From Bacillota bacterium (GTDB lineage: Bacteria; Bacillota; SHA-98; UBA4971), in the NCBI GenBank assembly GCA_050949175.1, contig JBMNFG010000009.1, positions 895-64,894 on the forward strand: a stretch of DNA of 64,000 bases. Direction: 5' to 3'. A program made the position numbers and the translations under genes. The notes beneath the pieces are model-generated. The model saw only the letters and a list, made by a program, of their open reading frames with translations, was not told the origin of the DNA and ran no database searches. Below are positions 3,553 through 58,343 of the stretch, piece after piece. The stretch's first letter is position 1. Every line of letters starts with the position of its first letter.

Positions 3553-5112
3553 ATGAAACCCGGGAAAACGCTTAGATTCAAGACTTTGCTGCCCGTTCTC
3601 ATCTGTGCTCTACTGGCGTTGGGAGTGACATCCCAGACTGCACTGGCCCTGGAGTTGGGTCCGACAGGGTTGCGCCTTTCGGGCGAGGTTGCGCAAACAG
3701 CATCCTGGTTTTTCGACCCAGGAGAACTCGTCATCGGTGTCACAAGGTACAAGCTTTCACTGGACCAGAGCTTACGGCGAGCGGGGATAGGGATTGACGG
3801 ACATCTTCATGTGTCTGTGAAAGGCTGGTACGACCATGAGGCATCTGAAGGAAAATGGATTGAACTGGGTGAGGCATATGCCGACATATACCACGATCTA
3901 TTCGACTTGCGCCTTGGGCATCAGGTTGTATCATGGGGTACTGCTTATGGATTGAACCCTACAAGCTACGTCAATCCAATGCCGGCTTTGGACACATTGG
4001 AGCCGGGAATGCTTACGGATGCTGCCGGTCTCCCTGTACCTGCTGCTTATGTATCAGCATATCCGTCATGGAGGGATTTGTCAGCTGATATCGGCATGGT
4101 GCTGGTCCTGGATCCCAGGCTTCAAGGAGTGCCGTTACCTAAGGAAGCACAGGCACAGATCTTATACGGTGTCCGTTCGCGCATCAAAGAAGGGCTGGAT
4201 CCGTCAGATTTGGCCGGGGGATTAGCCGAGATGATTCTGCCCTGGTTACCCCCGGGATTTACTGTCACCCCAGAGTTCCTGGAGGGATTAGCCCAGATTA
4301 TTATCAATTATGCCGAAGCGCGTCTCGCCGGAGAAGAATTTGTCCCTGAGGTTCCCGGCTCTTTCACGGACCGTTTGGAATTTGCAGCACGCGCAGGTAT
4401 GAATTTCGGCATGTGGGACCTGTACCTCAGCGGATTTCGGGGATGGGAGGATGCGCCTGTCCTTTGGGTAGAGGTTGCTCCTTCAGTCGAGTTTACAGAG
4501 GGGACTTCTCTCTCCGGACCATCACCGCCTCCTATAGAAATGATATCAGGGATTTACATGGATCTTTACCCGAAGGCAGCATACCGCAAGGCAACTGCGC
4601 TCGGAGCTGCCGTAAGCGGCACATGGGGCCCTTATACCTTCTGGGGCGAGGCAAGCTACACATGGCCTGATGAGGTTAAGGAGCTTGATCCGGAACAAAA
4701 CGTAGTCTTTTCAACCAACAATCCCTACCTGCAATTGGTGATAGGTGCGGACCAAATGTTGGGAAGCGCAGGTGAATACTATGTCATGGGGCAGTACATA
4801 TATAACGGCAGAGGTTCATTGCTTTCACCGTATACCATGCCGGATGAAGAAGGCAACCTCAAGGTCGAGCCAGGGCACTATTTATCTGCAATAGGCAGGG
4901 CTACGATACTTGATGATCATCAGATCGAGCTTATAAATGTCTTAAACATACGTGATAAGAGCGGGCTTATCATGCCCAGGTATACGTATAAGATAAACCC
5001 TATGCTCAGCACCTGGGTTGAGACTACACTTCTCTTCGGCGAAGAGTCTACGGAGTTCGGCAGCCTGCCCATGAATAAGTATGTGTCTTGCGGGGTTAAA
5101 GTTATTTGGTAA
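3553..5112 (+). CDS. Secreted protein, probable outer-membrane beta-barrel (DUF1302-like)
   Basis: 519 aa; signal peptide MKPGKTLRFKTLLPVLICALLALGVTSQTALA; Gly/aromatic-rich; terminates in ...CGVKVIW (C-terminal aromatic typical of OMPs). Gene context is MMPL plus LolA-like. Confidence 0.35.
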   Translation: MKPGKTLRFKTLLPVLICALLALGVTSQTALALELGPTGLRLSGEVAQTASWFFDPGELVIGVTRYKLSLDQSLRRAGIGIDGHLHVSVKGWYDHEASEGKWIELGEAYADIYHDLFDLRLGHQVVSWGTAYGLNPTSYVNPMPALDTLEPGMLTDAAGLPVPAAYVSAYPSWRDLSADIGMVLVLDPRLQGVPLPKEAQAQILYGVRSRIKEGLDPSDLAGGLAEMILPWLPPGFTVTPEFLEGLAQIIINYAEARLAGEEFVPEVPGSFTDRLEFAARAGMNFGMWDLYLSGFRGWEDAPVLWVEVAPSVEFTEGTSLSGPSPPPIEMISGIYMDLYPKAAYRKATALGAAVSGTWGPYTFWGEASYTWPDEVKELDPEQNVVFSTNNPYLQLVIGADQMLGSAGEYYVMGQYIYNGRGSLLSPYTMPDEEGNLKVEPGHYLSAIGRATILDDHQIELINVLNIRDKSGLIMPRYTYKINPMLSTWVETTLLFGEESTEFGSLPMNKYVSCGVKVIW

Positions 5113-5205: not shown

Positions 5206-5922
5206 GTGAAGAGAAAAGCTGCATGCAACCTGCTGGTAGGTCTTTGTATCATCATGTTGCTGGTAGGCTCGGTTTTTAGTGTTGAAGCCGCAAGCTTGCC
5301 TGAGGTGCGTATTAATGAAGCGGTGAATGTGTTACGGGAAATGGCTTCGCAGGAAGACTACGGTACAATGGCTGAGCTCCTGGCGAGGGCAAAGGGAGTT
5401 GCAATCTTCCCGTCGGTAGTCAAAGCCGGATTGATGCTGGGGGCAAGGCACGGCAAAGGTATTGTTCTGAAAAGAGATGCAGTGAGCGGACAGTGGTACG
5501 GACCGAACTTTGTAGAGATAACCGGGCTTTCGTACGGGCTTCAGATAGGTGTGCAGTCAACAGCTCTTGTCCTTGTTATCACAAATGAAGAAGGTATGAA
5601 GAGCTTTGAGGAAGGCAGCTTTACTCTCGGTGGCGATTTAACTGTAGCTGCAGGCCCCCTGGGCCGCCATCTGGAAGCCGGGACAGATATTGGACTTAAA
5701 GCTGCGATTTACAGTTACTCAATGAGTAAAGGCGCATTCGTCGGGTTTTCTCTGGAAGGGGCTAAGATAAGCCCGGACGATGCTGCTAATGAGCTTTACT
5801 GGAAGAGGTCAGCCTCACCCACCGAACTCCTCAAACAACGGGCGACAGATTCCAGGATAGGCCTGCTTATTCGGGAACTGGATGCGTTGGTGGCTGAAGG
5901 AGGAGGCAGGACCGCGCTCTGA
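5206..5922 (+). CDS. SYLF (Ysc84-like) lipid-binding domain protein, secreted
   Basis: GTG start at 5206 preceded by AGGAGGG; signal peptide VKRKAACNLLVGLCIIMLLVGSVFSVEAASL. The motif G..GKGIV and the conserved ...GAFVGFSLEGAKI... block are typical of the SYLF/DUF500 fold. Confidence 0.5.
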   Translation: MKRKAACNLLVGLCIIMLLVGSVFSVEAASLPEVRINEAVNVLREMASQEDYGTMAELLARAKGVAIFPSVVKAGLMLGARHGKGIVLKRDAVSGQWYGPNFVEITGLSYGLQIGVQSTALVLVITNEEGMKSFEEGSFTLGGDLTVAAGPLGRHLEAGTDIGLKAAIYSYSMSKGAFVGFSLEGAKISPDDAANELYWKRSASPTELLKQRATDSRIGLLIRELDALVAEGGGRTAL

Positions 5923-8873: not shown

Positions 8874-9476
8874 ATGCCAAATCCACGACGGCGCTGGACC
8901 ATTAGGGAACTTGCATTTTTAGCTCTTATTGCCGTGCTTAGCATGGTGACAAAACCCTATGTAAAAGGTGTTGTCAACGTTATTACCCAGCCTCTGGGCA
9001 TTCCGGGAGGAGTTGCTGCAGGCACGATCTACATGTTTTGGGTTGTGCTTGCAGGTTACATGGTAGGCCGTCCGGGCTCTGTGTTTCTCTTCTCTCTTCT
9101 TCAGGGGATACTTGCACTGATGATGGGGTTTACAGGTCCGCTGGGAGCGCTGATAATCGTCTCATATGCACTTCCCGGTATAGCAGTGGAGGTTTTGTAC
9201 CTGTCCCTTGGACTGGTCTGGGGCGATTGCCGTCAGGCATCTATCCCTTGCATATTGGCAGGGGCTGTGGCCAATATCTCAGGAGCTGTAGCCAATGCAA
9301 TCCTTATGTTTAGCATGGGAGGGAGCCTTGTCTTAGTATTGTCTCCCATCGCAGCCGTAACAGGAGGGCTTGGCGGGTTCTTGGCTTTTGTGGCCGGCAC
9401 GTATCTTGTTAGGGCTTTGGGAATTGACACGCTTTCGCAGAATGAAGCTACGTCAGAAGGAGCCGGATCTCAATGA
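8874..9476 (+). CDS. Polytopic membrane protein (second ECF-S-like / YkoE-like component)
   Basis: 200 aa, all hydrophobic helices; RBS GGAGGG upstream; stop overlaps the start of the next gene (ATGA at 9473-9476), implying an operon. Confidence 0.35.
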   Translation: MPNPRRRWTIRELAFLALIAVLSMVTKPYVKGVVNVITQPLGIPGGVAAGTIYMFWVVLAGYMVGRPGSVFLFSLLQGILALMMGFTGPLGALIIVSYALPGIAVEVLYLSLGLVWGDCRQASIPCILAGAVANISGAVANAILMFSMGGSLVLVLSPIAAVTGGLGGFLAFVAGTYLVRALGIDTLSQNEATSEGAGSQ

Positions 9477-28468: not shown

Positions 28469-28823
28469 AAACTTAAATCGACTGATGCTTATTTGCGATG
28501 ACAAGGACTAGTAAGCTAAGGTTTCAGGGTAAGAGAGAGCCGGGTAAGGTGGGAACCGGCACCCTGACCTAGCTGAATCCACCTTTGAGCTGCGGGCCGA
28601 AAGGCAGCACTCATGCCTGGTAAGCCTGGCCGGTTGTACCCGTTAACGTACACTTGAGTGGGTCTAAGGTTTATGCTTGCTCATGTTATGTTCTCGGGCC
28701 TTCTCTGAGTTTTCCGGATACCGTCCGTGGGATAATCACGGTGAAGGTAGGAAGGAGCAAGGCAGGAAGGGATGTCCGGAGCAGCACCGCTTAGATCAAA
28801 CCAAGGTGGCAACGCGGGAGGTT
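28469..28823 (+). promoter_or_regulatory. T-box riboswitch leader (tRNA-Ser responsive) upstream of serS
   Basis: About 400-nt leader between promoter and serS. Contains AGAGA (GA/K-turn-like) motif, candidate specifier loop ...GAAUCCACC (UCC = Ser codon), and T-box sequence AACCAAGGTGGCAACGCGGGAG (28798-28820, consensus AAnnnGGGTGGnACCGCGG). Followed by a terminator. Confidence 0.65.
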
Positions 28824-30195
<1,372 letters not shown>

Positions 30196-50142: not shown

Positions 50143-50586
50143 CTCGAGAGATCCCTCCTTCTTTCAACACGCACCTTAGAGGCACCGAACGTTCGCGATT
50201 ACTGCGGATTCCATCATACATGATGCTGTTGATTGAACTGCTCCGGTCTGTTTTTTGGTGTTGGCTACATTCTCATATATTAACGGGAGAACTGTCAAGG
50301 CGTTGCCGGGACTTATGTAGTCGGCTTCTGATAATGTCATTCATTGGTTTTTCATATTGATGCTTATTCCGGCAAGGATTACAATAGTTATGAACATATG
50401 ATTAATACTGTGTTGCCATGGCCATTACGACCATACAGGTAGTTTGCGTTCTTTGTTGAATCGGGTAAGATTCATATCGGGAAGTGTCGGTGTCACTTTC
50501 CAAGTTTGAGATATAAACAAGAGCTTGTGTTTTCTCCGCAATGTATTTATGATGCAGGAAGATGCGAAAGAAGGATGAGTTGCAAT

Positions 50587-50985
50587 ATGTTTTATAATGA
50601 GAAGGTCCTGGAGCATTTCTTGAACCCTAAGAACGTCGGTGAGATTGAAGACGCAGACGGAGTCGGGATAATAGGCGATCCCGGGTGCGGTGACTGTATA
50701 AAGGTTTTCATCAAGGTCAAGGATAGACGGATTGATGACATCAAGTTTAAGGTTTACGGATGTCCTGCTGCAATCGGAACCAGCAGCATAACGACGGAGC
50801 TTGCCAAAGGTAAGACTCTGGACGAAGCTTTTCAGATCAGTAATGAAGATGTTGTTGAAGCACTAGGCGGTCTCCCGGACCCCAAAATCCATTGCTCCGT
50901 TTTGTGCCCCGCTGCGCTCAGGCTGGCTATTCTCGATTATGTTGCAAAGCTGAAAGAGAAGAAGATTAAGGAGAAGCAAGCCTAA
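50587..50985 (+). CDS. nifU: IscU/NifU-like Fe-S cluster scaffold protein
   Basis: Start at MFYNEKVLEHFLNPKNVG; conserved cluster-ligand Cys (GDPGCGD, YGCPAAIG, HCS). Confidence 0.85.
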   Translation: MFYNEKVLEHFLNPKNVGEIEDADGVGIIGDPGCGDCIKVFIKVKDRRIDDIKFKVYGCPAAIGTSSITTELAKGKTLDEAFQISNEDVVEALGGLPDPKIHCSVLCPAALRLAILDYVAKLKEKKIKEKQA

Positions 50986-51188
50986 GCATTGATTCGGCTG
51001 AGTCAGATCCTGCCGCTTAGGATGCCGTCGCTGAGTGCAGGATAAGCTGCAGAAAAGCCTACGCATCCTTAAAGGCGCCCTGCAAAGCACGATGTTTTCT
51101 ACAACTAATGGTCTGTTCAGGGTATATCAGACGATAGTTCTCTCTTCGCAAAAGCCAGCTGATAGGTTCAGATAGCCTTTGTTTGCTT

Positions 51189-52300
51189 GAATGGCTCTTT
51201 CCAAGGGCCATTCTTTTCTGTTTTAGACCCTATTTGCTCCTGATTGGCTTCCGCCGAGAGCCATTCCGAAGCTTCCGTGAACTTCTGTAGGTTTAAGTGG
51301 CTTATGTAGGGAGCCACTAAGAGCCGTCTAAAGGTTTCTCAGCAAGCGAATGGCTCGTCAGAAGAGCCATTTGGGCTAGTTTTGAGCCTATTTGAGGCTT
51401 CACTGGCGATCGAATGGTTTGCACCATGAGCCATTTCGGCCCGTTTTCGGCACTTATGATTGCTGAATGGCTTCCACCGTAAGCCAATCGTAGGGGTATT
51501 ACTCTGATACTACTCGTGTTCGTGTAGCGGTATGGCTCATGTGAGGAGCCAATCTAGGCGGTTTGAAGGGCTTTCGGCGGTGGAATGGCTTACGACGTGA
51601 GCCATTTATGCTAGTTCCGGTGCTGTTTGGTGGAAGAATGGCTCACTCAGAGAGCCGGTTCCGGCGATCCGTGGACGTTCATGGGACGTTTATGCATCCA
51701 AATGGCTCATACAGTAAGCCAAGTAAGGTGATTTGGGCTCATTTTGACAGTGCCATGGCTCTTCTCATGAGCCATTTGTGCTCCTTTTCGCGTTTCATGG
51801 CTGAAGGATGGCTCATGTGGAGAGGCAATGAGGTTCGTTTAGAGAGCCTTTGGCGGGAGGTTGGCTCATCTTGTGAGCCGAACAACGAGTTTCGAGAGCT
51901 TTTGTGACTCGGAATGGCTTATGTGATAAGCCATTCCGAGCCTTTTGGCGGTTTTTCAGGTACGATTCGGCTCATTATGAGAGCCATTTACGCCTCCTGA
52001 CGCATCATTGCACTGAAGGATGGCTCACGTGGTGAACCAAGCAAAGCGGCCGGGAAGCTTTTCAGGGACTTATTGGCTCTTCCCGTGAGCCAATAACACT
52101 TGCTTTAGGCTTTCTTGGGTACCTAATGGCTCTCCCTGTGAGCACGTCAAGAGGTTTTAGGCGGTTGTAGACGCTTTTAGGCGGTTGTAGATACTTTACC
52201 GTACGGAAACAGCTCGTGCGGTGAGCCGTTCTGACCTGTTTGAGGCTATCTTGCATGTGGAGTGGCCCCCAACATGAGCCAGTGAAGGAATCTTAGAGGC
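51189..52300. repeat. Array of about 19-20 degenerate tandem units (53 bp, occasionally 64-65 bp), each with a 21-25 bp palindrome [R]AATGGCTC-N7-GAGCCATT[Y]
   Basis: Unit starts read at 51189, 51242, 51295, 51348, 51412, 51465, 51530, 51583, 51636, 51700, 51753, 51806, 51859, 51912, 51964, 52018, 52071, 52124, plus degenerate copies near 52205 and 52260. Inverted-repeat arms are conserved; the 7-nt core spacer and the 28-bp inter-site segments are variable but related. Confidence 0.9.
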
Positions 52301-52334
52301 TTCCGTCTGTTAGAGCAGCTTACGTGGAAGTATG

Positions 52335-52369
52335 AAAAATCCGGCCCGTCGCTTGCGGGCCGGATTTTC
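52335..52369 (-). terminator. Bidirectional intrinsic terminator downstream of the LysM-protein gene
   Basis: AAAAAT-CCGGCCCG-tcgcttg-CGGGCCGG-ATTTT; a second GC hairpin GGCGCCCCAGCAGGGGCGCC follows at about 52375-52396. Confidence 0.6.
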
Positions 52370-52461
52370 CCTAAGGCGCCCCAGCAGGGGCGCCCCCCCT
52401 GACTGGAATGAGTTTATCTCGAAGTCTTCAGCCTCAGACATGAGTTCATTCTGAGACGGAT

Positions 52462-53487
52462 TTATCTCGGAATGACCAGCCTCTGGCCTGCCCAGATGAC
52501 ATTAGCGTCTGTAATGCCATTCGCACTCATCAGGGCCTGAAGCGACACACCGTAGCGGTTTGCAATAGCCCAAAGTGTATCTCCGGGTTCTACGATGTGA
52601 GTCCTGGTGCCGGTGCCGCTTCCTGTTCCTGCAGGAATGCCGCTACCGCCTGTCCCCGGATTGGGTACCCATGGGTTACCGTTCTGGATGATTATCACTT
52701 GGCCTGCCCACAGGGCATTCGCGTTTATCCCCGGGTTTAGTTCAATAAGCTTATAGACGGTTACACCGTACCTTGATGATATTGCCCAGAGTGTGTCTCC
52801 CGGACGCACATAGTAGACAACACGTCCACCCGTCCCCTGACCCGGATGATTGGTAACAGGCGGGCCCGGAACCTTATATTCTGGGGTCACGTCATAAGCT
52901 GCTATTGTAGGACCGTTCTTTCCCCAGTATGTGAAGGAGGTCTTAGCCTGCTTTGCAATGGATGCTGCCTCCCAGGCGTCGGTGATCTCACGTACGCTGT
53001 TGATTGTCCAGATCATCCGCGCTCCGGAACCGAAGGGCTGGATTAGCTGGACAACGTAAGCCCGTCTTCCGTGCTGTACCAGGACCTTTGCTTCAGCGGT
53101 TCCTGAGTACTGGCCTTTTTCTACCTTGCTGAACAGTGTAAAGGTATCTGTAGACGGATTCAGGCCAAGATTCTGCCCTTCGATTCGGGCAACCTGAACT
53201 GGGTCAAGCCTCCACTGGTGCTGACCTCGGTTTACCTGCATCTGCACTCTCCACAGAGCCTGCCAGTCGATTGTTACAGGTCCTGTAGTGACTGTTGACT
53301 CAGGTTGGGTGTTTCCGGTGTAGTACACCTGCCCATTTTGTCCTGCCCTGAATGATGGGTGGACAGGCAATCCGCCTCCGGACTTCTGTACAGTTGATTC
53401 TTGTGCCAGGGTTGTCATTGTCATCGATGCAACCATGGCGATTACAAGTATTATTGAAGTTACAAAGTACTTCTTAAGATTAAACAA
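52462..53487 (-). CDS. Secreted/membrane-anchored protein with two C-terminal LysM peptidoglycan-binding domains
   Basis: TTG start with GGGGAG RBS; N-terminal TM/signal (YFVTSIILVIAMVASMTMTTLA). Two LysM repeats (YYVRPGDTLWAISSRYGVTVYKLIELNP...; HIVEPGDTLWAIANRYGVSLQALMSANG...). Confidence 0.8.
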   Translation of the reverse strand: MFNLKKYFVTSIILVIAMVASMTMTTLAQESTVQKSGGGLPVHPSFRAGQNGQVYYTGNTQPESTVTTGPVTIDWQALWRVQMQVNRGQHQWRLDPVQVARIEGQNLGLNPSTDTFTLFSKVEKGQYSGTAEAKVLVQHGRRAYVVQLIQPFGSGARMIWTINSVREITDAWEAASIAKQAKTSFTYWGKNGPTIAAYDVTPEYKVPGPPVTNHPGQGTGGRVVYYVRPGDTLWAISSRYGVTVYKLIELNPGINANALWAGQVIIIQNGNPWVPNPGTGGSGIPAGTGSGTGTRTHIVEPGDTLWAIANRYGVSLQALMSANGITDANVIWAGQRLVIPR

Positions 53488-53690
53488 AGAACATCTCCCC
53501 TTCTGCGGCAGAAGCCGCCCAGGTAAAGTATGATATTAAGGGTGTTGTCACCCTCCTGGCTATGATATATATCCAGCGTAAGGGTGTCACCCCACAAATG
53601 ATTCCACAATATGAAAAGAGCGGAACTGGGATTTATACTGCTTGGCTAGCATAAGATCCTTTTGAAGGGACTTAAGAATTCGCAGCGAAC

Positions 53691-53815
53691 TCTTATCTTG
53701 AGGATGTCTTATGTTTTTAGGCTGTCCTATGTCTTGAGAATATCTTATGTTGTTAGAATGTCCTGTGTCTTGAGGATGACTTATCTCTTGAGGATGTCTT
53801 GGGTTCTGAGAAAAC
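53691..53815. repeat. Tandem array of 7 x 18-bp units (TCTTATGTCTTGAGGATG-like)
   Basis: tcttatcttgaggatg / tcttatgtttttaggctg / tcctatgtcttgagaata / tcttatgttgttagaatg / tcctgtgtcttgaggatg / acttatctcttgaggatg / tcttgggttctgagaaaa. Generates a spurious hexapeptide-repeat ORF on the minus strand. Confidence 0.8.
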
Positions 53816-53867
53816 AACCATGACTATCCGAACCTTACGACCAGCCGAAAACGGTATGTAAGAACAG

Positions 53868-54118
53868 TATGTGTACGTTAGCCGACAAGAGCGTGGACTT
53901 AGTACAAGATGTATGGGCTAATCGACTGGAGCGCAGACATAGTACACCATTTATAGACTAGCCTACAAGAGCGCGGATATAGTACACGATGTATACACTG
54001 GCCGATAAGACCGCGGATACAGTACATGATGTATAGACTGACCGACAAGAGTGTGGCTATAGTGCACGAGACCATGGATGCAGTACAGACATATTGGCTG
54101 GAACGAGCATGGATAGTC
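53868..54118. repeat. Tandem array of about 6 x 42-bp units (..GCCGACAAGAGCGYGGAYWTAGTACAMGATGTATAGACT..)
   Basis: Six successive about-42-bp blocks sharing CAAGAGCG, TAGTACA and ATGTATAGACT cores, ending about 20 bp before hutH. Confidence 0.8.
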
Positions 54119-54137
54119 TTAGGAAAGGGAGACTGAG

Positions 54138-55649
54138 GTGTCGAAAGTATTTATCGACGGCAGGACTCTTACTTATGAAGATGTAGTCGCGGTTGCGCGC
54201 GGCTACAAAAGTGTAGACATCGCCTCTGAAGTGCGCGACCAGGTTGAGAGAACCCGCCGGGTATTAGAGGATATTTTAGCTCAAGACAGAGTGATCTACG
54301 GAGTCAACACCGGCTTCGGCCATCTTGCTTCCGTCCGGATCTCCGATGAAGAGCTTTGCAAGCTGCAGGAGAACCTCATTATCAGCCATGCGGCAGGAAC
54401 AGGCGATCCTTTCCCTGATGAAGTAGTCAGGGCTATGATTCTTCTCCGCGCCAACTCCCTGGCAAGAGGCCTATCCGGGGTTAGATACGAGCTTATCGAG
54501 GCGTTGGTGTCCCTTGCAAACCACGATATTTGCCCGATCATCCCTGAGCAGGGGTCTCTTGGAGCATCCGGCGATCTCGCACCCCTTGCGCACCTGGCCC
54601 TCGCCCTCCTCGGCAAGGGGAAGGTCAGGATGGGCGGCATGCTTATGGACGCAGCTCTAGCCTTGGAGCGAGCCGGAATATCTCCTCTTACACTCATGCC
54701 CAAAGAAGGAATAGGCCTTATAAACGGCACACAGGCTATGACTGCAGTGGGTGCTATCGCGCTCTATGATGCTGTAGTGCTGGCAATAACCGCTGATGCT
54801 GCGGCATCCATGTCCATTGAAGCGCTGCGAGGGATTCCCGATGCTTTCCGCCCCTGTCTCCACCAGGCCAGACCTCATCAGGGCCAGATGGAGTGCGCAG
54901 AGTTCATCAGCAGATTGCTTGAAGGAAGCCGGCTTGTCAGTGCCCCGGGCGAGCTCCGAGTCCAGGATGCGTATTCTATAAGATGTATCCCTCAAGTTCA
55001 TGGAGCTACCAGAGATGTCTTGGAATATGTAAGGAAAGTAATCAATACGGAAATAAACTCAGTCAGCGACAATCCCCTGGTTTTCCCCGACGGTCAAGTG
55101 ATTTCAGCAGGCAATTTCCACGGACAGCCTGTAGCGTTGGCTATGGATTTTCTGTCAATTGCCACAGCTGAGCTTGGGAACATATCCGAGAGGCGCATTG
55201 AGCGGTTATTGAATCCGGCTTTATCCGGGCTTCCGCCTTTTCTCGCTGTGCAAGGCGGTATTAACAGCGGTTTCATGATTTCTCAATACACTGCCGCATC
55301 ACTAGTGTCTGAGAATAAGGTCCTCTCGGCACCTGCAAGCACAGATTCGATTCCGGTATCCGCATCCCAGGAAGACCATGTGAGCATGGGGACGATTGCC
55401 GCTCGTAAGGCCAGGGCAGTAGTGAAGAACGTGGCTCGAATCCTTGCTATTGAACTTATGTGTGCCTGCCAGGCGCTGGAGTTTCAAGGCCCTGAAAAAC
55501 TGGCTCCCGGGACTCGCAGGATTTATGACTTGGTCCGCCAGGTTCTGCCTTCGCTTGAAGAAGACAGGTGGCTGCATCCTGATATTGAGGCTGTTACTGA
55601 ACTGGTTGCCGAAGGCCGGATAGCCGAAGTTGCTGTGGCTGCCGGCTAG
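54138..55649 (+). CDS. hutH: Histidine ammonia-lyase (aromatic amino-acid ammonia-lyase family, MIO cofactor)
   Basis: 503 aa, GTG start with GGGAG RBS. MIO-forming triad in GSLGASGDLAPLAH; typical HAL blocks (YGVNTGFG, NPLV, FHGQP). Confidence 0.9.
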   Translation: MSKVFIDGRTLTYEDVVAVARGYKSVDIASEVRDQVERTRRVLEDILAQDRVIYGVNTGFGHLASVRISDEELCKLQENLIISHAAGTGDPFPDEVVRAMILLRANSLARGLSGVRYELIEALVSLANHDICPIIPEQGSLGASGDLAPLAHLALALLGKGKVRMGGMLMDAALALERAGISPLTLMPKEGIGLINGTQAMTAVGAIALYDAVVLAITADAAASMSIEALRGIPDAFRPCLHQARPHQGQMECAEFISRLLEGSRLVSAPGELRVQDAYSIRCIPQVHGATRDVLEYVRKVINTEINSVSDNPLVFPDGQVISAGNFHGQPVALAMDFLSIATAELGNISERRIERLLNPALSGLPPFLAVQGGINSGFMISQYTAASLVSENKVLSAPASTDSIPVSASQEDHVSMGTIAARKARAVVKNVARILAIELMCACQALEFQGPEKLAPGTRRIYDLVRQVLPSLEEDRWLHPDIEAVTELVAEGRIAEVAVAAG

Positions 55650-55749
55650 AGGCCATCGGCAATGTGGCGAAGGATCCCCTGTTGCACTTTGCCGAAGAAT
55701 GGTTTAAGATTTAGACAAAAGTAAATAACCAACAGTAGATCTTCGGGGC

Positions 55750-55880
55750 AGGGTGAGGCTGGAGTCTCCAGCCAATTCCCGACCGGTGGTAATGCCGAAA
55801 GGTAAGTCCACGAGCTGCAAATGCGGTTGAGCCGGTGAGATGCCGGCACCGACGGTAAAGTCCGGATGGGAGAAGGCCTC
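55750..55880 (+). promoter_or_regulatory. Candidate cobalamin-riboswitch-like structured leader (tentative)
   Basis: Segments CCGGTGAGATGCCGG, CACCGACGGTAAAG and GGGAGAAGGC resemble the GGTGAAAATCC / CCCGCNACTGTAA / GGGAAGGC core of Cbl riboswitches. The B12-box GCCACTG and the GGGAA block upstream of GGTG are not evident, so the call is weak. A perfect 17-nt hairpin GGCTGGAGTCTCCAGCC sits just upstream. Confidence 0.25.
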
Positions 55881-55928
55881 AAGCAGATTGAATGCGCTTG
55901 CTGCTGCTTGGAACTGGTTGAAATTTGA

Positions 55929-55964
55929 GCCCTGAGGTCTACCGCCCAGGGCTTCATTTTTTGG
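55929..55964 (+). terminator. Putative intrinsic terminator (expression-platform-like) in the hutH/ECF-S intergenic region
   Basis: GCCCTG-aggtctaccgcc-CAGGGC followed by TTCATTTTTTGG. Confidence 0.4.
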
Positions 55965-56185
55965 CACACTGTCAGTTTACGAGCCGGTGTACTCAGAATC
56001 ACCGCACTTTGTTGGTATGCTTTGTCGATATACTTTGTTGGTATCAGAGAAGCAGGCATGCATCCTGGGCCCGGCATCCGGAGAGCGCGGTTCAGTGTGC
56101 GAGACAGCGTTCCGGATTAGTGTGCTAACCAGGGGTAACGCTCTGAAGCCCGGGCGGGCAAGGCAACATAAGGAGGTTGTTCAGA

Positions 56186-56773
56186 TTGATCAATCAAAAG
56201 ACCAAAAGGATTGTTATGCTAGGTGTTCTTGCTTCCATAGCAGTTCTCCTATCCCTTGCCAACTGGCCTCTGTTTCCATCAGCGCCACATCTTCGCTTTG
56301 AAACGGCTGACGTGCCAGTATTGATTGCCGGGTTCGCCTTCGGTCCGGCAGCAGGGTTATCCGTTGCCTTTGTCATGGCAGTCTTAATGGCTGCGATCAC
56401 AGGCCTTGACGGAGCAGTGGGAGCATTCATGCATTTTTTGAGCACAGGCAGTCTGGTGCTGGCTGCAAGCCTCGTGTACAGGCGCCATCACACACTAAAA
56501 GGAGCGATAGCAGGTCTCTTCTCAGGCACTCTCGCGCACACCATAGTCATGCCGCTTGTGAACCTGACAATCGTTCCGTTAATATACGGCTTCTCAAGAG
56601 AGCAAGTGGTGCACATGCTGCCTATACTCTTTGCTTTCAACGCTGTCAAAGCCGGGTTGAACTCGATTGTTACGTTCCTCGTTTATAAACGAGTATCCTG
56701 GTTCATTAAAGGCCTTCTGGCAGGCGACAAAGCTAACCGGTTTGCCGAGCAAGTGCAAAAACCTTCTACTTAG
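56186..56773 (+). CDS. ECF-transporter substrate-specific (S) component, possibly cobalamin-type (CbrT-like)
   Basis: About 195 aa from TTG 56186 (AGGAGG 9 nt upstream); 6 TM with a small polar N-terminus. No A/T ECF modules nearby. CbrT assignment is inferred only from the upstream Cbl-like leader. Confidence 0.5.
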   Translation: MINQKTKRIVMLGVLASIAVLLSLANWPLFPSAPHLRFETADVPVLIAGFAFGPAAGLSVAFVMAVLMAAITGLDGAVGAFMHFLSTGSLVLAASLVYRRHHTLKGAIAGLFSGTLAHTIVMPLVNLTIVPLIYGFSREQVVHMLPILFAFNAVKAGLNSIVTFLVYKRVSWFIKGLLAGDKANRFAEQVQKPST

Positions 56774-56935
56774 TTCATAGGCTCGGCAGTTAGTTCAGAA
56801 GCCCGGCTATTTAGTTCATAGGCTCAGCAGTCCAGTGGAGGATCTTGGCCATCTTGTCCATCTAGTTCGGAGCTTGGGTAGTTAGTTCAGAGCCTGCTCG
56901 TTCACATCAGAAGCTCGGAGGTTTAGTTCAAAGAT
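56771..56935. repeat. Tandem array of about 7 x 20-22-bp units (TAGTTCAnAGGCTCGGCAG-like), beginning at the stop codon of the ECF-S gene
   Basis: tagttcataggctcggcagt / tagttcagaagcccggctat / ttagttcataggctcagcag / ctagttcggagcttgggtag / ttagttcagagcctgctcg / ttcacatcagaagctcggagg / tttagttcaaagatgcggc. Confidence 0.75.
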
Positions 56936-56978
56936 GCGGCAATGCCTCGGTGAGGTGATGCCGCATCTTCTGTTTTCA
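56933..56978 (+). terminator. Intrinsic terminator after the ECF-S gene and repeat array
   Basis: GATGCGGCA-atgcctcggtgaggtga-TGCCGCATC followed by TTCTGTTTTC. Confidence 0.6.
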
Positions 56979-57221
56979 TATGAGTATGAAATTTCCCCAG
57001 ATTCCATATATATATACCACTCTTCGGCAGGATTATCGGTCTAATGTACCGAATACCTAACGATGCTTGACGTATGGCGTTGTAAGGGATAGACTCTATA
57101 AAAACAGAAAACCGCTTTCGGAGGTGATAAATGCAGGTACCTCAATAGAGCATAGGATAGAGTCTTTATGAGAGCTATCTCAATCAACCATTAAGTAGAT
57201 TAAAGAAGGGGAGTAGATATA

Positions 57222-58343
57222 ATGAGAAAGTTTGTAATCGGTTTATTGGTCGTAGCATTTCTTGTCAGCGCAATAGGTGTAGTCGGAACTGCAGCTCCTG
57301 CGTATAAGATCGGAATCGTCACCGGAACGGTCTCGCAGGGCGAAGATGAGTACCGCGGCGCAGAGAAAATGAAGGCTAAGTACGGCGACATGATAAAGCA
57401 CGTCATCTATCCGGACAACTTCATGCAGGAACAGGAGACCACAATAGCCCAGATCACAGGTCTTGCTGCAGATCCGGATGTCAAAGCGATTGTTGTCAAC
57501 CAGGCAGTTCCGGGCACAGTTGCAGCCATCAGGCAGGTACGGGAAATTCGTCCGGATATCATTTTCCTTCTGGGCGTTCCCCACGAAGATCCTGAGCTTG
57601 TTTCCGATACTGCAGACCTTTCCTTTGAAACAGACCAGGAAAGGCGTGGAGTGACGATTGTTCAGCTTGCGAAAGAACTTGGCGCTGAGAAGTTCCTCCA
57701 CTATTCATTCCCCAGGCATATGGCTATGCCGCTTCTGGCGAAGCGCGCCGACATCATGAAAGAGGAAGCCGAGAGGCTCGGAATTGAGTTCATCTTTGCA
57801 ACTGCTCCTGACCCAATGGGTGAGTACGGCATACCCGGTGCTCAGCAGTTCATCCTTGAGGATGTGCCGAGACAGGTTGAGAAGTATGGCAAGAATATTG
57901 CACTATTCAGCACCAACTGCAGCATGCAGGAGCCTCTTATCATTTCAGCACTGAACACAGGCGCAATCTTCCCTGAGCAGTGCTGCCCGAGCCCAACTCA
58001 TGGTTACCCTGCAGCTCTGGGTCTTGAGATTACCGACGAGATGAAGGGTAATATCCCGGCAATCCTCAAGGCAATCAACGACGCCATTGTTGAAAAGGGC
58101 GGAGCAGGAAGGTTTGCCACATGGCCAGTCCCCACCAACTACCTCCTTGTCGAGGCTTGCGTGGAGATAGCCCGTGACACGATCGAAGGGAAGATGGAGC
58201 TTAGCGACCTGGACGCTGTCAAAGCCAGGTTAGAGGCTGCAGCCGGTGTTCCCATGGAGCTCCGTAGGCTTCCTGAGAAGCCAGATGGTAATTTCTATCT
58301 ATTAACAAGCGGCTCTGTCGTTTTCGGGAGAGATGAATTCTAA
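57222..58343 (+). CDS. ABC transporter substrate-binding lipoprotein/periplasmic protein (type I PBP fold, DUF3798-like)
   Basis: 373 aa, signal peptide MRKFVIGLLVVAFLVSAIGVVGTAAPA, then YKIGIVTGTVSQGEDEY... First gene of an SBP-ATPase-permease-permease operon. Family name from memory. Confidence 0.5.
   Translation: MRKFVIGLLVVAFLVSAIGVVGTAAPAYKIGIVTGTVSQGEDEYRGAEKMKAKYGDMIKHVIYPDNFMQEQETTIAQITGLAADPDVKAIVVNQAVPGTVAAIRQVREIRPDIIFLLGVPHEDPELVSDTADLSFETDQERRGVTIVQLAKELGAEKFLHYSFPRHMAMPLLAKRADIMKEEAERLGIEFIFATAPDPMGEYGIPGAQQFILEDVPRQVEKYGKNIALFSTNCSMQEPLIISALNTGAIFPEQCCPSPTHGYPAALGLEITDEMKGNIPAILKAINDAIVEKGGAGRFATWPVPTNYLLVEACVEIARDTIEGKMELSDLDAVKARLEAAAGVPMELRRLPEKPDGNFYLLTSGSVVFGRDEF

Follow-up and report, generated by a model that had tools for sequence, protein, structure and literature searches.

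In enterobacteria and pseudomonads, repetitive extragenic palindromes (REPs) and bacterial interspersed mosaic elements (BIMEs) act at two levels: BIMEs bind gyrase, IHF and Pol I as DNA, and as RNA the repeats are stabilisers. The F-plasmid centromere sopC is a single locus that adjoins sopAB on the replicon that needs it. Mycobacterial minisatellites of the mycobacterial interspersed repetitive unit (MIRU) type have loci that vary in copy number between strains and contain no conserved dyad. The controlling inverted repeat of chaperone expression (CIRCE), TTAGCACTC-N9-GAGTGCTAA, is an operator bound by HrcA that is present as a single copy in the promoters of heat-shock operons, and it provides a precedent for one dyad serving as both DNA operator and mRNA hairpin. 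BOX elements of Streptococcus pneumoniae and S. suis have the arrangement boxA-(boxB)n-boxC, and large BOX arrays vary between strains; the S. suis elements have one internal module that is enclosed by either of two kinds of end module, of 115 and 133 nt (PMC3049150). Here we describe a tract at positions 51189-52312 of a 64-kb stretch of DNA from a Bacillota bacterium (hereafter, the window), in which a 53-bp module with a central dyad, TGGCTC-N7-GAGCCA, is repeated head to tail. On balance, this tract is probably one copy of a lineage-wide BOX- or BIME-like interspersed repeat, the dyads of which are read as DNA by a putative factor. As many scattered copies are present in genomes of an uncultured anaerobic-digester group, the tract is more like the known interspersed repeats than like a unique centromere-like site.

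Structure of the window array

The region 50700-52800 was read letter by letter, and its dyads were aligned in register. When up to two mismatches are allowed, TGGCTC-N7-GAGCCA matches 19 times at 51192-52281 and only twice in the remainder of the 64 kb, these two isolated dyads being at chance level. A shuffled-sequence control gave a mean of 3.8 and a maximum of 10 matches. Alignment in register brings out 20 units, including as the 20th the decayed unit at 52207. An earlier note on this DNA had described about 19 sites at 51189-52300; the array is real and lies where it was placed, with the count corrected to 20 units and the end to 52312. Of the first 17 spacings, 14 measure 53 bp and the other three 64-65 bp, rather than 13 and four as first counted, since the 15th unit starts at 51965 and not at 51964. 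The last two spacings are 83 and 53 bp.

The units of the window array share a mean column identity of 62%; their loops vary, and their spacers can be aligned with one another. Because the inter-site segments are related to one another, the tract is a diverged tandem repeat, in agreement with its previous description as a single diverged tandem duplication. Tandem Repeats Finder (TRF), run on the window, did not report the 53-bp array itself, as the units are too diverged. It identified local tandem duplications of 11 nt in the 64-bp step 51636-51700 and of 20 nt in the 83-bp step, and a 10-nt duplication in the 64-bp step 51348-51412 can be read directly from the letters. Written in full, the dyad is GAATGGCTC-N7-GAGCCATTC. 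Conservation of at least 90% is confined to the inner 6 bp of each arm (T4 G5 G6 C7 T8 / A18 G19 C20 C21), and the outer 3 bp of the stems in the window array are paired in just 50-70% of the units. Of the 9-bp arms that had been reported as conserved around a variable 7-bp centre, the inner 6 bp and the variability of the centre thus hold, and the outer 3 bp do not. The array tract is non-coding: its period of 53 is not a multiple of 3, and the repeat-spanning open reading frame (ORF) of 114 aa at 51563-51907 on the + strand has no Pfam match and is a spurious product of the repeats, as had been supposed.

The array is no assembly artefact and is not hypervariable in unit number. It is complete in nine independent assemblies (ENA, JGI, NCBI and Logan), which show 97.4-99.5% identity over the whole iscU-lysM intergenic region and no change in unit number, and in a tenth assembly (L005; L-numbers designate the compared loci or contigs from relatives and metagenomes) it is present up to a scaffold gap. 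The right flank of L005, which seemed to differ from the window, is merely this gap of Ns. The IscU-like neighbour protein is found identical on many contigs. In assembly GCA_900198705.1 of the window species, the locus lies on contig FZPS01000178.1. One strain, L211, is 98% identical to window 51298-55434 but has another left flank and diverged first units; comparison of its positions 8993-9200 with window 51189-51400 places the junction inside the array. This junction represents either an array-mediated rearrangement or recombination between arrays, or a chimeric metagenome assembly.

Distribution and turnover of the family

The 53-bp unit forms a multi-copy, dispersed family. A scan with one genome per species, in which two adjacent dyads were required, identified nine Bacillota metagenome-assembled genomes (MAGs) in which the unit occupies five to eleven or more separate loci each, often at contig ends. 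The hosts are Candidatus Fermentithermobacillaceae, 'Firmicutes UBA4981', 'Eubacteriales SRP192927_co8_49' and several 'Bacillota bacterium' digester bins. With a hidden Markov model (HMM) of the 53-nt unit, about 40 arrays could be oriented unambiguously, and a scan of metagenomes yielded 81 further arrays of 2-24 units each. The hairpin-to-hairpin step is 53 bp in 577/691 cases, and the hairpin loop is 7 nt in 579/593. The family consensus is GAaTGGCTC-acc.ggt-GAGCCA.TC...gaTTTga.GGCtTtTCgg..G, and all units of an array have the same orientation. The window itself holds a single array copy, a count that refers to these 64 kb and not to the genome of its host. No published description of this repeat family was found in literature searches; the family thus appears to be undescribed, although it belongs to the known BOX- or BIME-like kind of interspersed repeat.

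The arrays are found in any orientation relative to genes. Based on crude ORF calls, the orientations of the flanking ORFs relative to the array are same/same in 7 cases, same/opposite in 6, opposite/opposite in 6 and opposite/same in 5. The adjoining genes are unrelated housekeeping genes, and no par, rep, regulator or other gene recurs among the array neighbours. Positions are not conserved between relatives either. Synteny with window 50566-57446, at about 80% nucleotide identity, is seen in two loci, L025 and L038, and the iscU-lysM gap of L025 is only about 200 bp long, with a plain terminator and no array. Conversely, L025 has an array in the opposite orientation next to the flavin mononucleotide (FMN) riboswitch, where the window has none, and the same is seen in L157, L168 and L187. 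In L060 and L148, an array lies upstream of the homologue of window 14215, a place where the window has none. Arrays are therefore gained and lost between relatives. The earlier picture of a single special nucleoprotein locus is not compatible with arrays at many unrelated intergenic sites per genome.

Related arrays also occur outside the Bacillota. Long-read Chloroflexia MAGs (L032/L063) contain a clearly homologous unit, GGATGGCTC-N7-GGACCATTCAGCGAATGGATGCGGCTTCAGG, with a 51-bp period, and hairpin arrays with related stems (TGGC..-N-..GCCA) and periods of 49-51 bp are present in Bacteroidales (L058/L071) and Cloacimonadota (L115). These arrays in other phyla suggest horizontal spread or a widely conserved reader. 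Plasmid and phage collections gave no match to the unit. In a viral scan, four contigs gave one pattern match each, and the one inspected, L127, holds a two-unit site. The Burkholderiales matches of the genome scan, which have longer spans, are presumably unrelated and were set aside.

Constraint on the dyad arms

Among strains of the window species, variable sites are less frequent in the arms (4/240) than in the spacers (38/744; p=0.026), the loops showing 5/140; elsewhere, 9/352 sites vary in other intergenic DNA, 1/399 in iscU and 2/1026 in lysM. Relative to the 90%-identical orthologous array L166, differences amount to 3.8% in the arms, 10.9% in the loops and 8.9% in the spacers (p=0.013), and four of the eight arm changes restore or keep the pair, one of them being changed on both sides. 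When 26 clusters of orthologous arrays are pooled, variable sites represent 1.27% of arm positions, 3.1% of the outer stem, 3.1% of the loops, 3.8% of the spacers and 1.0% of the flanks. The arms differ strongly from the spacers (p=3e-12) and not significantly from the flanks (p=0.23). As the flanks in this comparison are mostly coding, a variability of the arms equal to that of the flanks means that the arms are constrained. At many arrays, purifying selection thus acts on the 12 arm bases, and the loops, outer stems and spacers behave as unconstrained. With this selection, a gap fixed at 7 bp and no strand preference, the dyad arms are the functional part of the unit, as the earlier note had proposed, and fit a dyad-symmetric DNA site.

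Among strains, the density of variable sites in the array spacers is about 25-fold that in the flanking genes (5.1% vs 0.2%) and double that in the remaining intergenic DNA. Mutation or conversion may have hotspots in the arrays.

Arrays grow by duplication of blocks of units, as seen in L069, and the 10-nt sub-repeat of the spacer slips, giving alleles of 63, 83, 93 and 97 bp. Selection on helical phase was considered as a reason for insertions of +10, +11, +21 and +30; slippage of the 10-nt sub-repeat offers a mechanical explanation of their quantisation. This slippage accounts for the +10 and +11 departures, which are therefore not usable as evidence of phase selection. The arithmetic behind the earlier statement that all dyads lie on the same face of the helix is correct, as 53 bp correspond to 5.05 helical turns with a drift of about one turn across 19 units; the longer steps, which had been counted as further whole turns, are ascribed to slippage and give no evidence that phase is selected.

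Composite elements

In one sub-clade (JAPXLY01, DUVA01, DGZL01 and JAAYRV01, together with many metagenome contigs), the arrays are part of composite elements. A 5' module of about 135 bp lies upstream of the array; it starts with CAGGAATTCCGCAAACGCCGTTTTTCC and includes the hairpin AGATGGGAG..TTGCCCATCT. The array is followed by a 3' module of about 90 bp, with ...GGCTTGCGGAATTCCTG at its end. The ends of the element are inverted repeats of each other, beginning with CAGGAATTCCGCAA; CAGGAATTCCGCAAR is present at both ends, and weaker complementarity extends out to about 45 nt. The 21 complete elements measure 0.4-1.3 kb, and none contains an intact gene. Direct repeats of 11, 7, 7 and 6 nt are present outside the termini in four of the seven distinct complete copies, far above chance (about 0.01 expected per copy). 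Consensus scans of the composite elements found no conserved promoter or terminator. A sigma-54-type promoter (TGGCAC-N5-TTGTA) considered in the 5' module was discarded, as its GG and GC elements are not conserved among copies. The 5' module (e.g., L076 157-292 and L025 6288-6153) has a well-kept hairpin, AGATGGGAG(Y)(Y)TTGCCCATCT, followed by ATGAAAGAGCATATAG; this hairpin may serve in transposase binding or act as RNA.

Traces of IS256-family transposases are present at two loci. In L040, a 90-aa N-terminal fragment of this family (PF00872) lies at 5274-5546, between the array and the 3' module; it is identical on 8 contigs, the next-nearest proteins are about 62-65% identical, and no close full-length relative was found. 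In L117, an array-bearing segment of about 440 bp is directly duplicated (2420-2860 and 3800-4240), and a truncated IS256-family transposase gene (169 aa, - strand) lies between the two segments. An IS256-family element is a candidate parent of the elements. The fragment lacks a close full-length relative, no composite copy exceeding 1.3 kb was found, and the genes beyond arrays without a 3' module are housekeeping genes.

HMMs of the end modules gave no match on the window, and local alignment of the window to the end modules is no better than that of shuffles. The same applies to candidate degenerate inverted termini of the window copy (GGCGCCCTGCAAAGC at 51074; GCTTGCGG and GCAGGGGCGCC at 52361-52394), which were discarded. 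The window copy is either an eroded insertion or a 'naked' array.

Proposed nature of the repeat

Each copy of the family is a head-to-tail array (2-24 units) of the 53-bp module, the sole constrained part of which is the 19-bp dyad TGGCTC-N7-GAGCCA. The composite elements of several sister genomes are laid out like pneumococcal BOX (A-Bn-C) and like a non-autonomous transposable element, and array length changes through slippage of whole 53-bp units and of the 10-nt spacer sub-repeat. The window copy is probably an old, expanded insertion without recognisable ends, fixed in its species between the convergent iscU and lysM genes. The dyads of the family would act as double-stranded or transiently extruded hairpin DNA, bound by a putative dyad-symmetric factor encoded elsewhere. 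The candidate reader would be a dimeric sequence-specific protein, or an enzyme that recognises the extruded hairpin. Binding of such a factor would account for the slow change of the arms, which at every array is about three times slower than that of loops and spacers, for the constant 7-bp gap and for the equal treatment of the two strands. In the iscU-lysM gap, the array probably has no locus-specific role beyond an incidental one, unit 1 and its T-run looking like the terminator of iscU.

Several points weigh against this interpretation. The direct repeats lie 0-6 nt off the termini instead of abutting them exactly, and three of the seven copies show none. At the window copy, neither end modules nor inverted termini nor a target duplication can be recognised, so that this copy is tied to transposition through the homology of its units only. 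The arrays of CAZXLH01, DUTL01 and JAXGPX01 share no flanks. No autonomous parent was found, the 90-aa IS256-family fragment being the sole transposase trace inside a composite copy. No candidate for a cognate binding protein emerged, and nothing recurs among the array neighbours. The constraint on the arms could equally serve an RNA hairpin or a single-stranded DNA hairpin. Finally, the arrays are much longer and steadier between strains than the large BOX arrays reported.

A wider scenario is possible, although we advance it tentatively: the dyads would be operator-like sites for a dedicated dimeric protein, or wrapping sites (e.g., for gyrase), with a factor conserved across Bacillota and Chloroflexia, and a transposable element would have brought dozens of phased multi-site platforms into each genome, where they are now maintained by host selection. 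If true, bacteria would offer an example of a mobile element that disperses arrays of binding sites, and these arrays would act at the level of the chromosome, for instance as domain boundaries, in the control of supercoiling or as roadblocks.

What appeared to be a unique centromere-like curiosity becomes a recognisable class of repeats in a poorly known group of uncultured anaerobic-digester Bacillota. In practice, such arrays break short-read assemblies, with many of them at contig ends, create spurious ORFs and may be mistaken for clustered regularly interspaced short palindromic repeats (CRISPRs) by automated array finders. They also provide unusually clean evidence of a dispersed repeat that is not neutral, since across 26 arrays only the 12 arm bases are constrained and the 7-bp and 53-bp geometry is fixed. 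Owing to this constraint, the reader of the dyad should be accessible to pull-down or DAP-seq, and, should it prove to be a host protein, the family would be well suited to studies of how mobile elements distribute binding-site arrays in bacterial chromosomes.

Alternative explanations

The alternative that best withstands the data is an element acting at the RNA level, in which transcribed strings of hairpins would be exonuclease barriers or stabilisers (like REPs), processing substrates or a decoy that occupies a hairpin-binding protein. Every unit forms a stem of 6-9 bp with a loop of 7 nt, T-runs come after three of the units, the family's unit orientation is rich in G+T, and BOX, REP and Correia repeats have known activities as transcripts. 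Covariation is significant across the family, where it comes from the outer pairs (0/500 shuffles reach the observed score), and cells changed on both sides number 65, above every shuffle (43.2 +/- 5.1). Some arm changes between orthologues also restore pairing. In contrast, covariation within the window array is not significant, as 57/500 shuffles reach the observed score, and no Rfam family matched above noise at gathering and permissive thresholds; the earlier note had named a structural RNA with covariation as an explanation that would overturn its own. RNAalifold, run on 20 and on 120 units, gave no second helix and no consensus fold beyond the hairpin. The core arms are kept as sequence, not just as pairs (TGGCTC/GAGCCA in 97/167 units), and single transitions giving G-U pairs are balanced, with 26 on the + strand and 22 on the - strand. 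Moreover, arrays lie in every orientation relative to genes and also between divergent genes, no promoter-like site was found in or before the window array, including any sigma-70-like promoter between iscU and lysM, and this array is bounded by inward-facing terminator-like hairpins. Together, the balanced transitions, the free orientation of the arrays, the missing promoter signal and the inward terminators favour a symmetric reading at the DNA level, and an RNA-level role seems fairly unlikely to us.

Two structural refinements of the unit were considered. A second hairpin in the 28-nt segment (GGTCG-TTC-CGACC or GACGG-CTT-CCGTC in L069) has no RNAalifold support, and flipping of the loop between two orientations was rejected, as it gave a model gain of 88.8, inside the shuffle range (69.5 +/- 13). 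The loop consensus, ACCnGGT, is itself palindromic, without covariation.

A locus-specific nucleoprotein platform, such as a sopC-like centromere, an iteron-like origin element or a large operator array, would bind a helix-turn-helix (HTH), ribbon-helix-helix (RHH) or ParB-like protein cooperatively as dimers. The phasing of the dyads at about 5 turns, the selection on the arms, the fixed gap between half-sites and a symmetry suited to a dimer on double-stranded DNA all agree with it. However, a relative with 80% identity lacks the array in the orthologous intergenic region, the arrays of a genome occupy five to eleven or more unrelated sites, and the plasmid and phage collections contain no match. 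The seemingly phase-keeping insertions of +10 and +11 are explained by slippage of the 10-nt sub-repeat, which continues to 83, 93 and 97 bp. No par, rep or regulator gene lies within about 10 kb of the window array, and none recurs near the other arrays, in line with the earlier observation that neither ParA/ParB nor an evident regulator is encoded beside the array. A centromere or iteron array like sopC, which that note had given as the closest architecture, does not fit a family with many loci, unstable positions and composite elements with inverted ends, and we consider such a platform very unlikely.

An equally small chance is given to a selfish hairpin minisatellite with no trans-acting reader, in which the mechanics of DNA would preserve the arms, either through protected stems with hypermutable loops and spacers or through template switching at quasi-palindromes. 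In the window species, the spacers do vary more than other intergenic DNA (5.1% vs 2.6%), and overall they are 3.8 times more variable than the flanks, from which the arms do not differ; slippage is visibly active, and L211 has a different left flank joined inside the array. Nevertheless, the flanks are mostly coding, so that equality with them amounts to constraint, and the three outer pairs of the stem are as variable as the loops (3.1%), although they would be equally protected in a hairpin. Furthermore, different arrays, genomes and even phyla retain one and the same set of 12 arm bases, which mechanisms that restore complementarity do not explain.

That the tract is a degenerate or orphan CRISPR array, or derives directly from one, is extremely improbable in spite of the regular alternation of a 25-nt hairpin 'repeat' and a 28-nt 'spacer', of a true CRISPR with the same stem in its repeat, GTCTGGCTCCTCCGCGGAGCCAGCGGATTGAAAT, caught by the same scan (L056/L081), and of G(C/T)GGAT a few bases past the hairpin in many units, because the 'spacers' are mutually homologous in every array, the repeats are degenerate and their loops vary, cas genes are absent within about 10 kb, the 53-bp period is shorter than that of the true CRISPRs caught by the scan (66-69 bp; L056, L081 and L120), and arrays lie inside elements bounded by inverted repeats; the tract had also been judged not CRISPR-like before. 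The genuine CRISPR at L056 7600-8000, also in L081, belongs to a Peptococcaceae MAG, and its repeat is presumably of a type I-C-like kind. The stem that it shares with the 53-bp units may be a coincidence or reflect distant ancestry.

Genomic context of the window copy

The window copy lies between an IscU/NifU-N-like gene on the left (50587-50985, + strand) and a convergent gene for a LysM-domain protein on the right (52462-53487, - strand). The whole array (51189-52312) consists of 20 units of the 53-bp module, each with a dyad or hairpin and a 28-nt G+T-rich segment, and is given on the + strand, which is the unit orientation of the family. All unit dyads listed below are on this strand.

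Unit 1 (51189-51213) is GAATGGCTC-tttccaa-GGGCCATTC; with the T-run reaching to about 51223, it resembles a terminator of iscU, and unit 1 followed by TTTTCTGTTT was flagged as terminator-like on the + strand. Unit 2 (51242-51266) has TGGCTT/GAGCCA, and unit 3 (51295-51319) has AAGTGGCTT/GAGCCACTA. Unit 4 (51348-51372) has a perfect core and is a 64-bp unit, its spacer carrying the 10-nt duplication TTTGAGCCTA/TTTGAGGCTT. Unit 5 (51412-51436) exhibits TGGTTT/GAGCCA, and unit 6 (51465-51489), a 65-bp unit, exhibits TGGCTT/AAGCCA, changed on both sides. The core is perfect in unit 7 (51530-51554), which is followed by unit 8 (51583-51607) and unit 9 (51636-51660). The latter is extended to 64 bp by the 11-nt tandem duplication found by TRF, two copies of GGACGTTCATG at 51673-51694 (+ strand). 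Unit 10 (51700-51724) has TGGCTC/AAGCCA, which in the orthologue L166 is repaired to TGGCTT/AAGCCA. Unit 11 (51753-51777) has a perfect core, and unit 12 (51806-51830) has GAGGCA where L166 has GAGCCA. After unit 13 (51859-51883), unit 14 (51912-51936) is again changed on both sides, to TGGCTT/AAGCCA. Unit 15 (51965-51989) shows CGGCTC/GAGCCA and unit 16 (52018-52042) TGGCTC/GAACCA, whereas unit 17 (52071-52095) combines a perfect core with a longer stem, TTATTGGCTC/GAGCCAATAA. Unit 18 (52124-52148) is decaying (GAGCAC) and measures 83 bp owing to the 20-nt tandem duplication (x2.2) that TRF placed at 52155-52197 (+ strand). Unit 19 (52207-52231) has CAGCTC/GAGCCG, and the corresponding TAGCTC/GAGCCA of L166 is a change on both sides. 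Unit 20 (52260-52284) has TGGCCC/GAGCCA.

Downstream of the array, a G+C-rich hairpin between an A-run and a T-run, AAAAATCCGGCCCG-tcgcttg-CGGGCCGGATTTT, can be read directly at 52333-52368. It looks like a bidirectional terminator that closes lysM on the - strand, and by its similarity to the flanks of other arrays it belongs to a second small repeat and not to the 53-bp units. The window copy of this second dispersed repeat, which adjoins several arrays, lies at 52333-52400. The repeat has a terminator-like hairpin, AAAATCCGGCC...GGGCCGGATTTT, followed by AAGGCGCC-N-GGCGCC, or elsewhere by GTCCCCGAGTGCAACACCGGC. Further copies lie at about 5560-5640 of L130, in the upstream flanks of L175/L139, in the downstream flank of L146 and in the right flanks of L015/L076, and the lysM terminator region of the window is 76% identical over 74 nt to the copy in L130, L141, L155 and L202.

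The genes within about 10 kb on either side encode a beta-lactamase, an amidohydrolase, a ParE-like toxin, an efflux system, IscU and LysM proteins, a histidine ammonia-lyase-type lyase, and energy-coupling factor (ECF) and ATP-binding cassette (ABC) transporters; cas, par, rep and transposase genes were all absent over the same distance. The FMN riboswitch that was used as synteny anchor lies at 55735-55881, upstream of the gene for an ECF-type transporter S component, and a T-box leader is present at 28489-28840, neither being out of the ordinary. Outer-membrane efflux proteins together with T-box and FMN riboswitches fit a diderm Bacillota lineage. The intergenic region between the divergent lysM and histidine ammonia-lyase-type genes contains two more tandem repeats, at 53696-53800 and 53879-54069; one has an 18/36-bp period (TCTTGAGGATGTCTTATG, about 5.8 copies), and the other repeats every 40 bp (4.8 copies). 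In relatives (L040, L069 and L113), the DNA upstream of arrays likewise often contains short tandem repeats, and these genomes seem to be rich in intergenic minisatellites.

Comparison with known systems

With regard to the more distant systems, the arrays share with CRISPRs the regular alternation of hairpin repeats and segments, the presence of several arrays per genome and, in one sub-clade, a conserved sequence before the first unit. In contrast to CRISPRs, their segments are paralogous instead of acquired, their repeats are degenerate, they have no cas neighbours, and inverted-repeat termini surround the array. A type III toxin-antitoxin (ToxI-like) layout was not observed: the window array is followed by a terminator and the convergent LysM gene, and the neighbours of other arrays are unrelated housekeeping genes. 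The likeness to CIRCE is one of form only, and comprises a 9-bp inverted repeat, a fixed gap and a ...CTC-N-GAG... core. As in the MIRU-type minisatellites, intergenic tandem repeats of about 50 bp occupy tens of loci per genome, but the window array is invariant in nine assemblies. F-plasmid sopC and other plasmid centromere or iteron arrays resemble the tract in their tandem units of about 43-53 bp, each with a short inverted repeat, spaced by a roughly integral number of turns. The arrays described here are, however, chromosomal, numerous, positionally unstable between relatives and unlinked to par genes.

REPs and BIMEs are closer, being many-copy extragenic palindromes that cluster in intergenic regions and are conserved as sequence, and they offer a model for host selection on a dispersed dyad. 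They differ in that REPs alternate in orientation and mostly form single copies or small clusters, whereas here the units are all repeated directly, at a strict period of 53 bp; a GTAG-type 5' tetranucleotide is missing, and no scattered single dyads occur in the 64-kb window. BOX elements have no sequence relationship with the family and belong to a different host lineage. A strongly conserved perfect dyad lies within the unit here, and the arrays reach 20-24 units, are stable between strains and in many cases, including that of the window, have no end modules. Nevertheless, both are interspersed, non-coding and multi-copy, and both have end modules with terminal inverted repeats around a variable number of tandem modules of about 45-53 bp. 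In both, the internal module folds alone, and the end modules of S. suis are near the size of the modules of about 135 and 90 bp found here.

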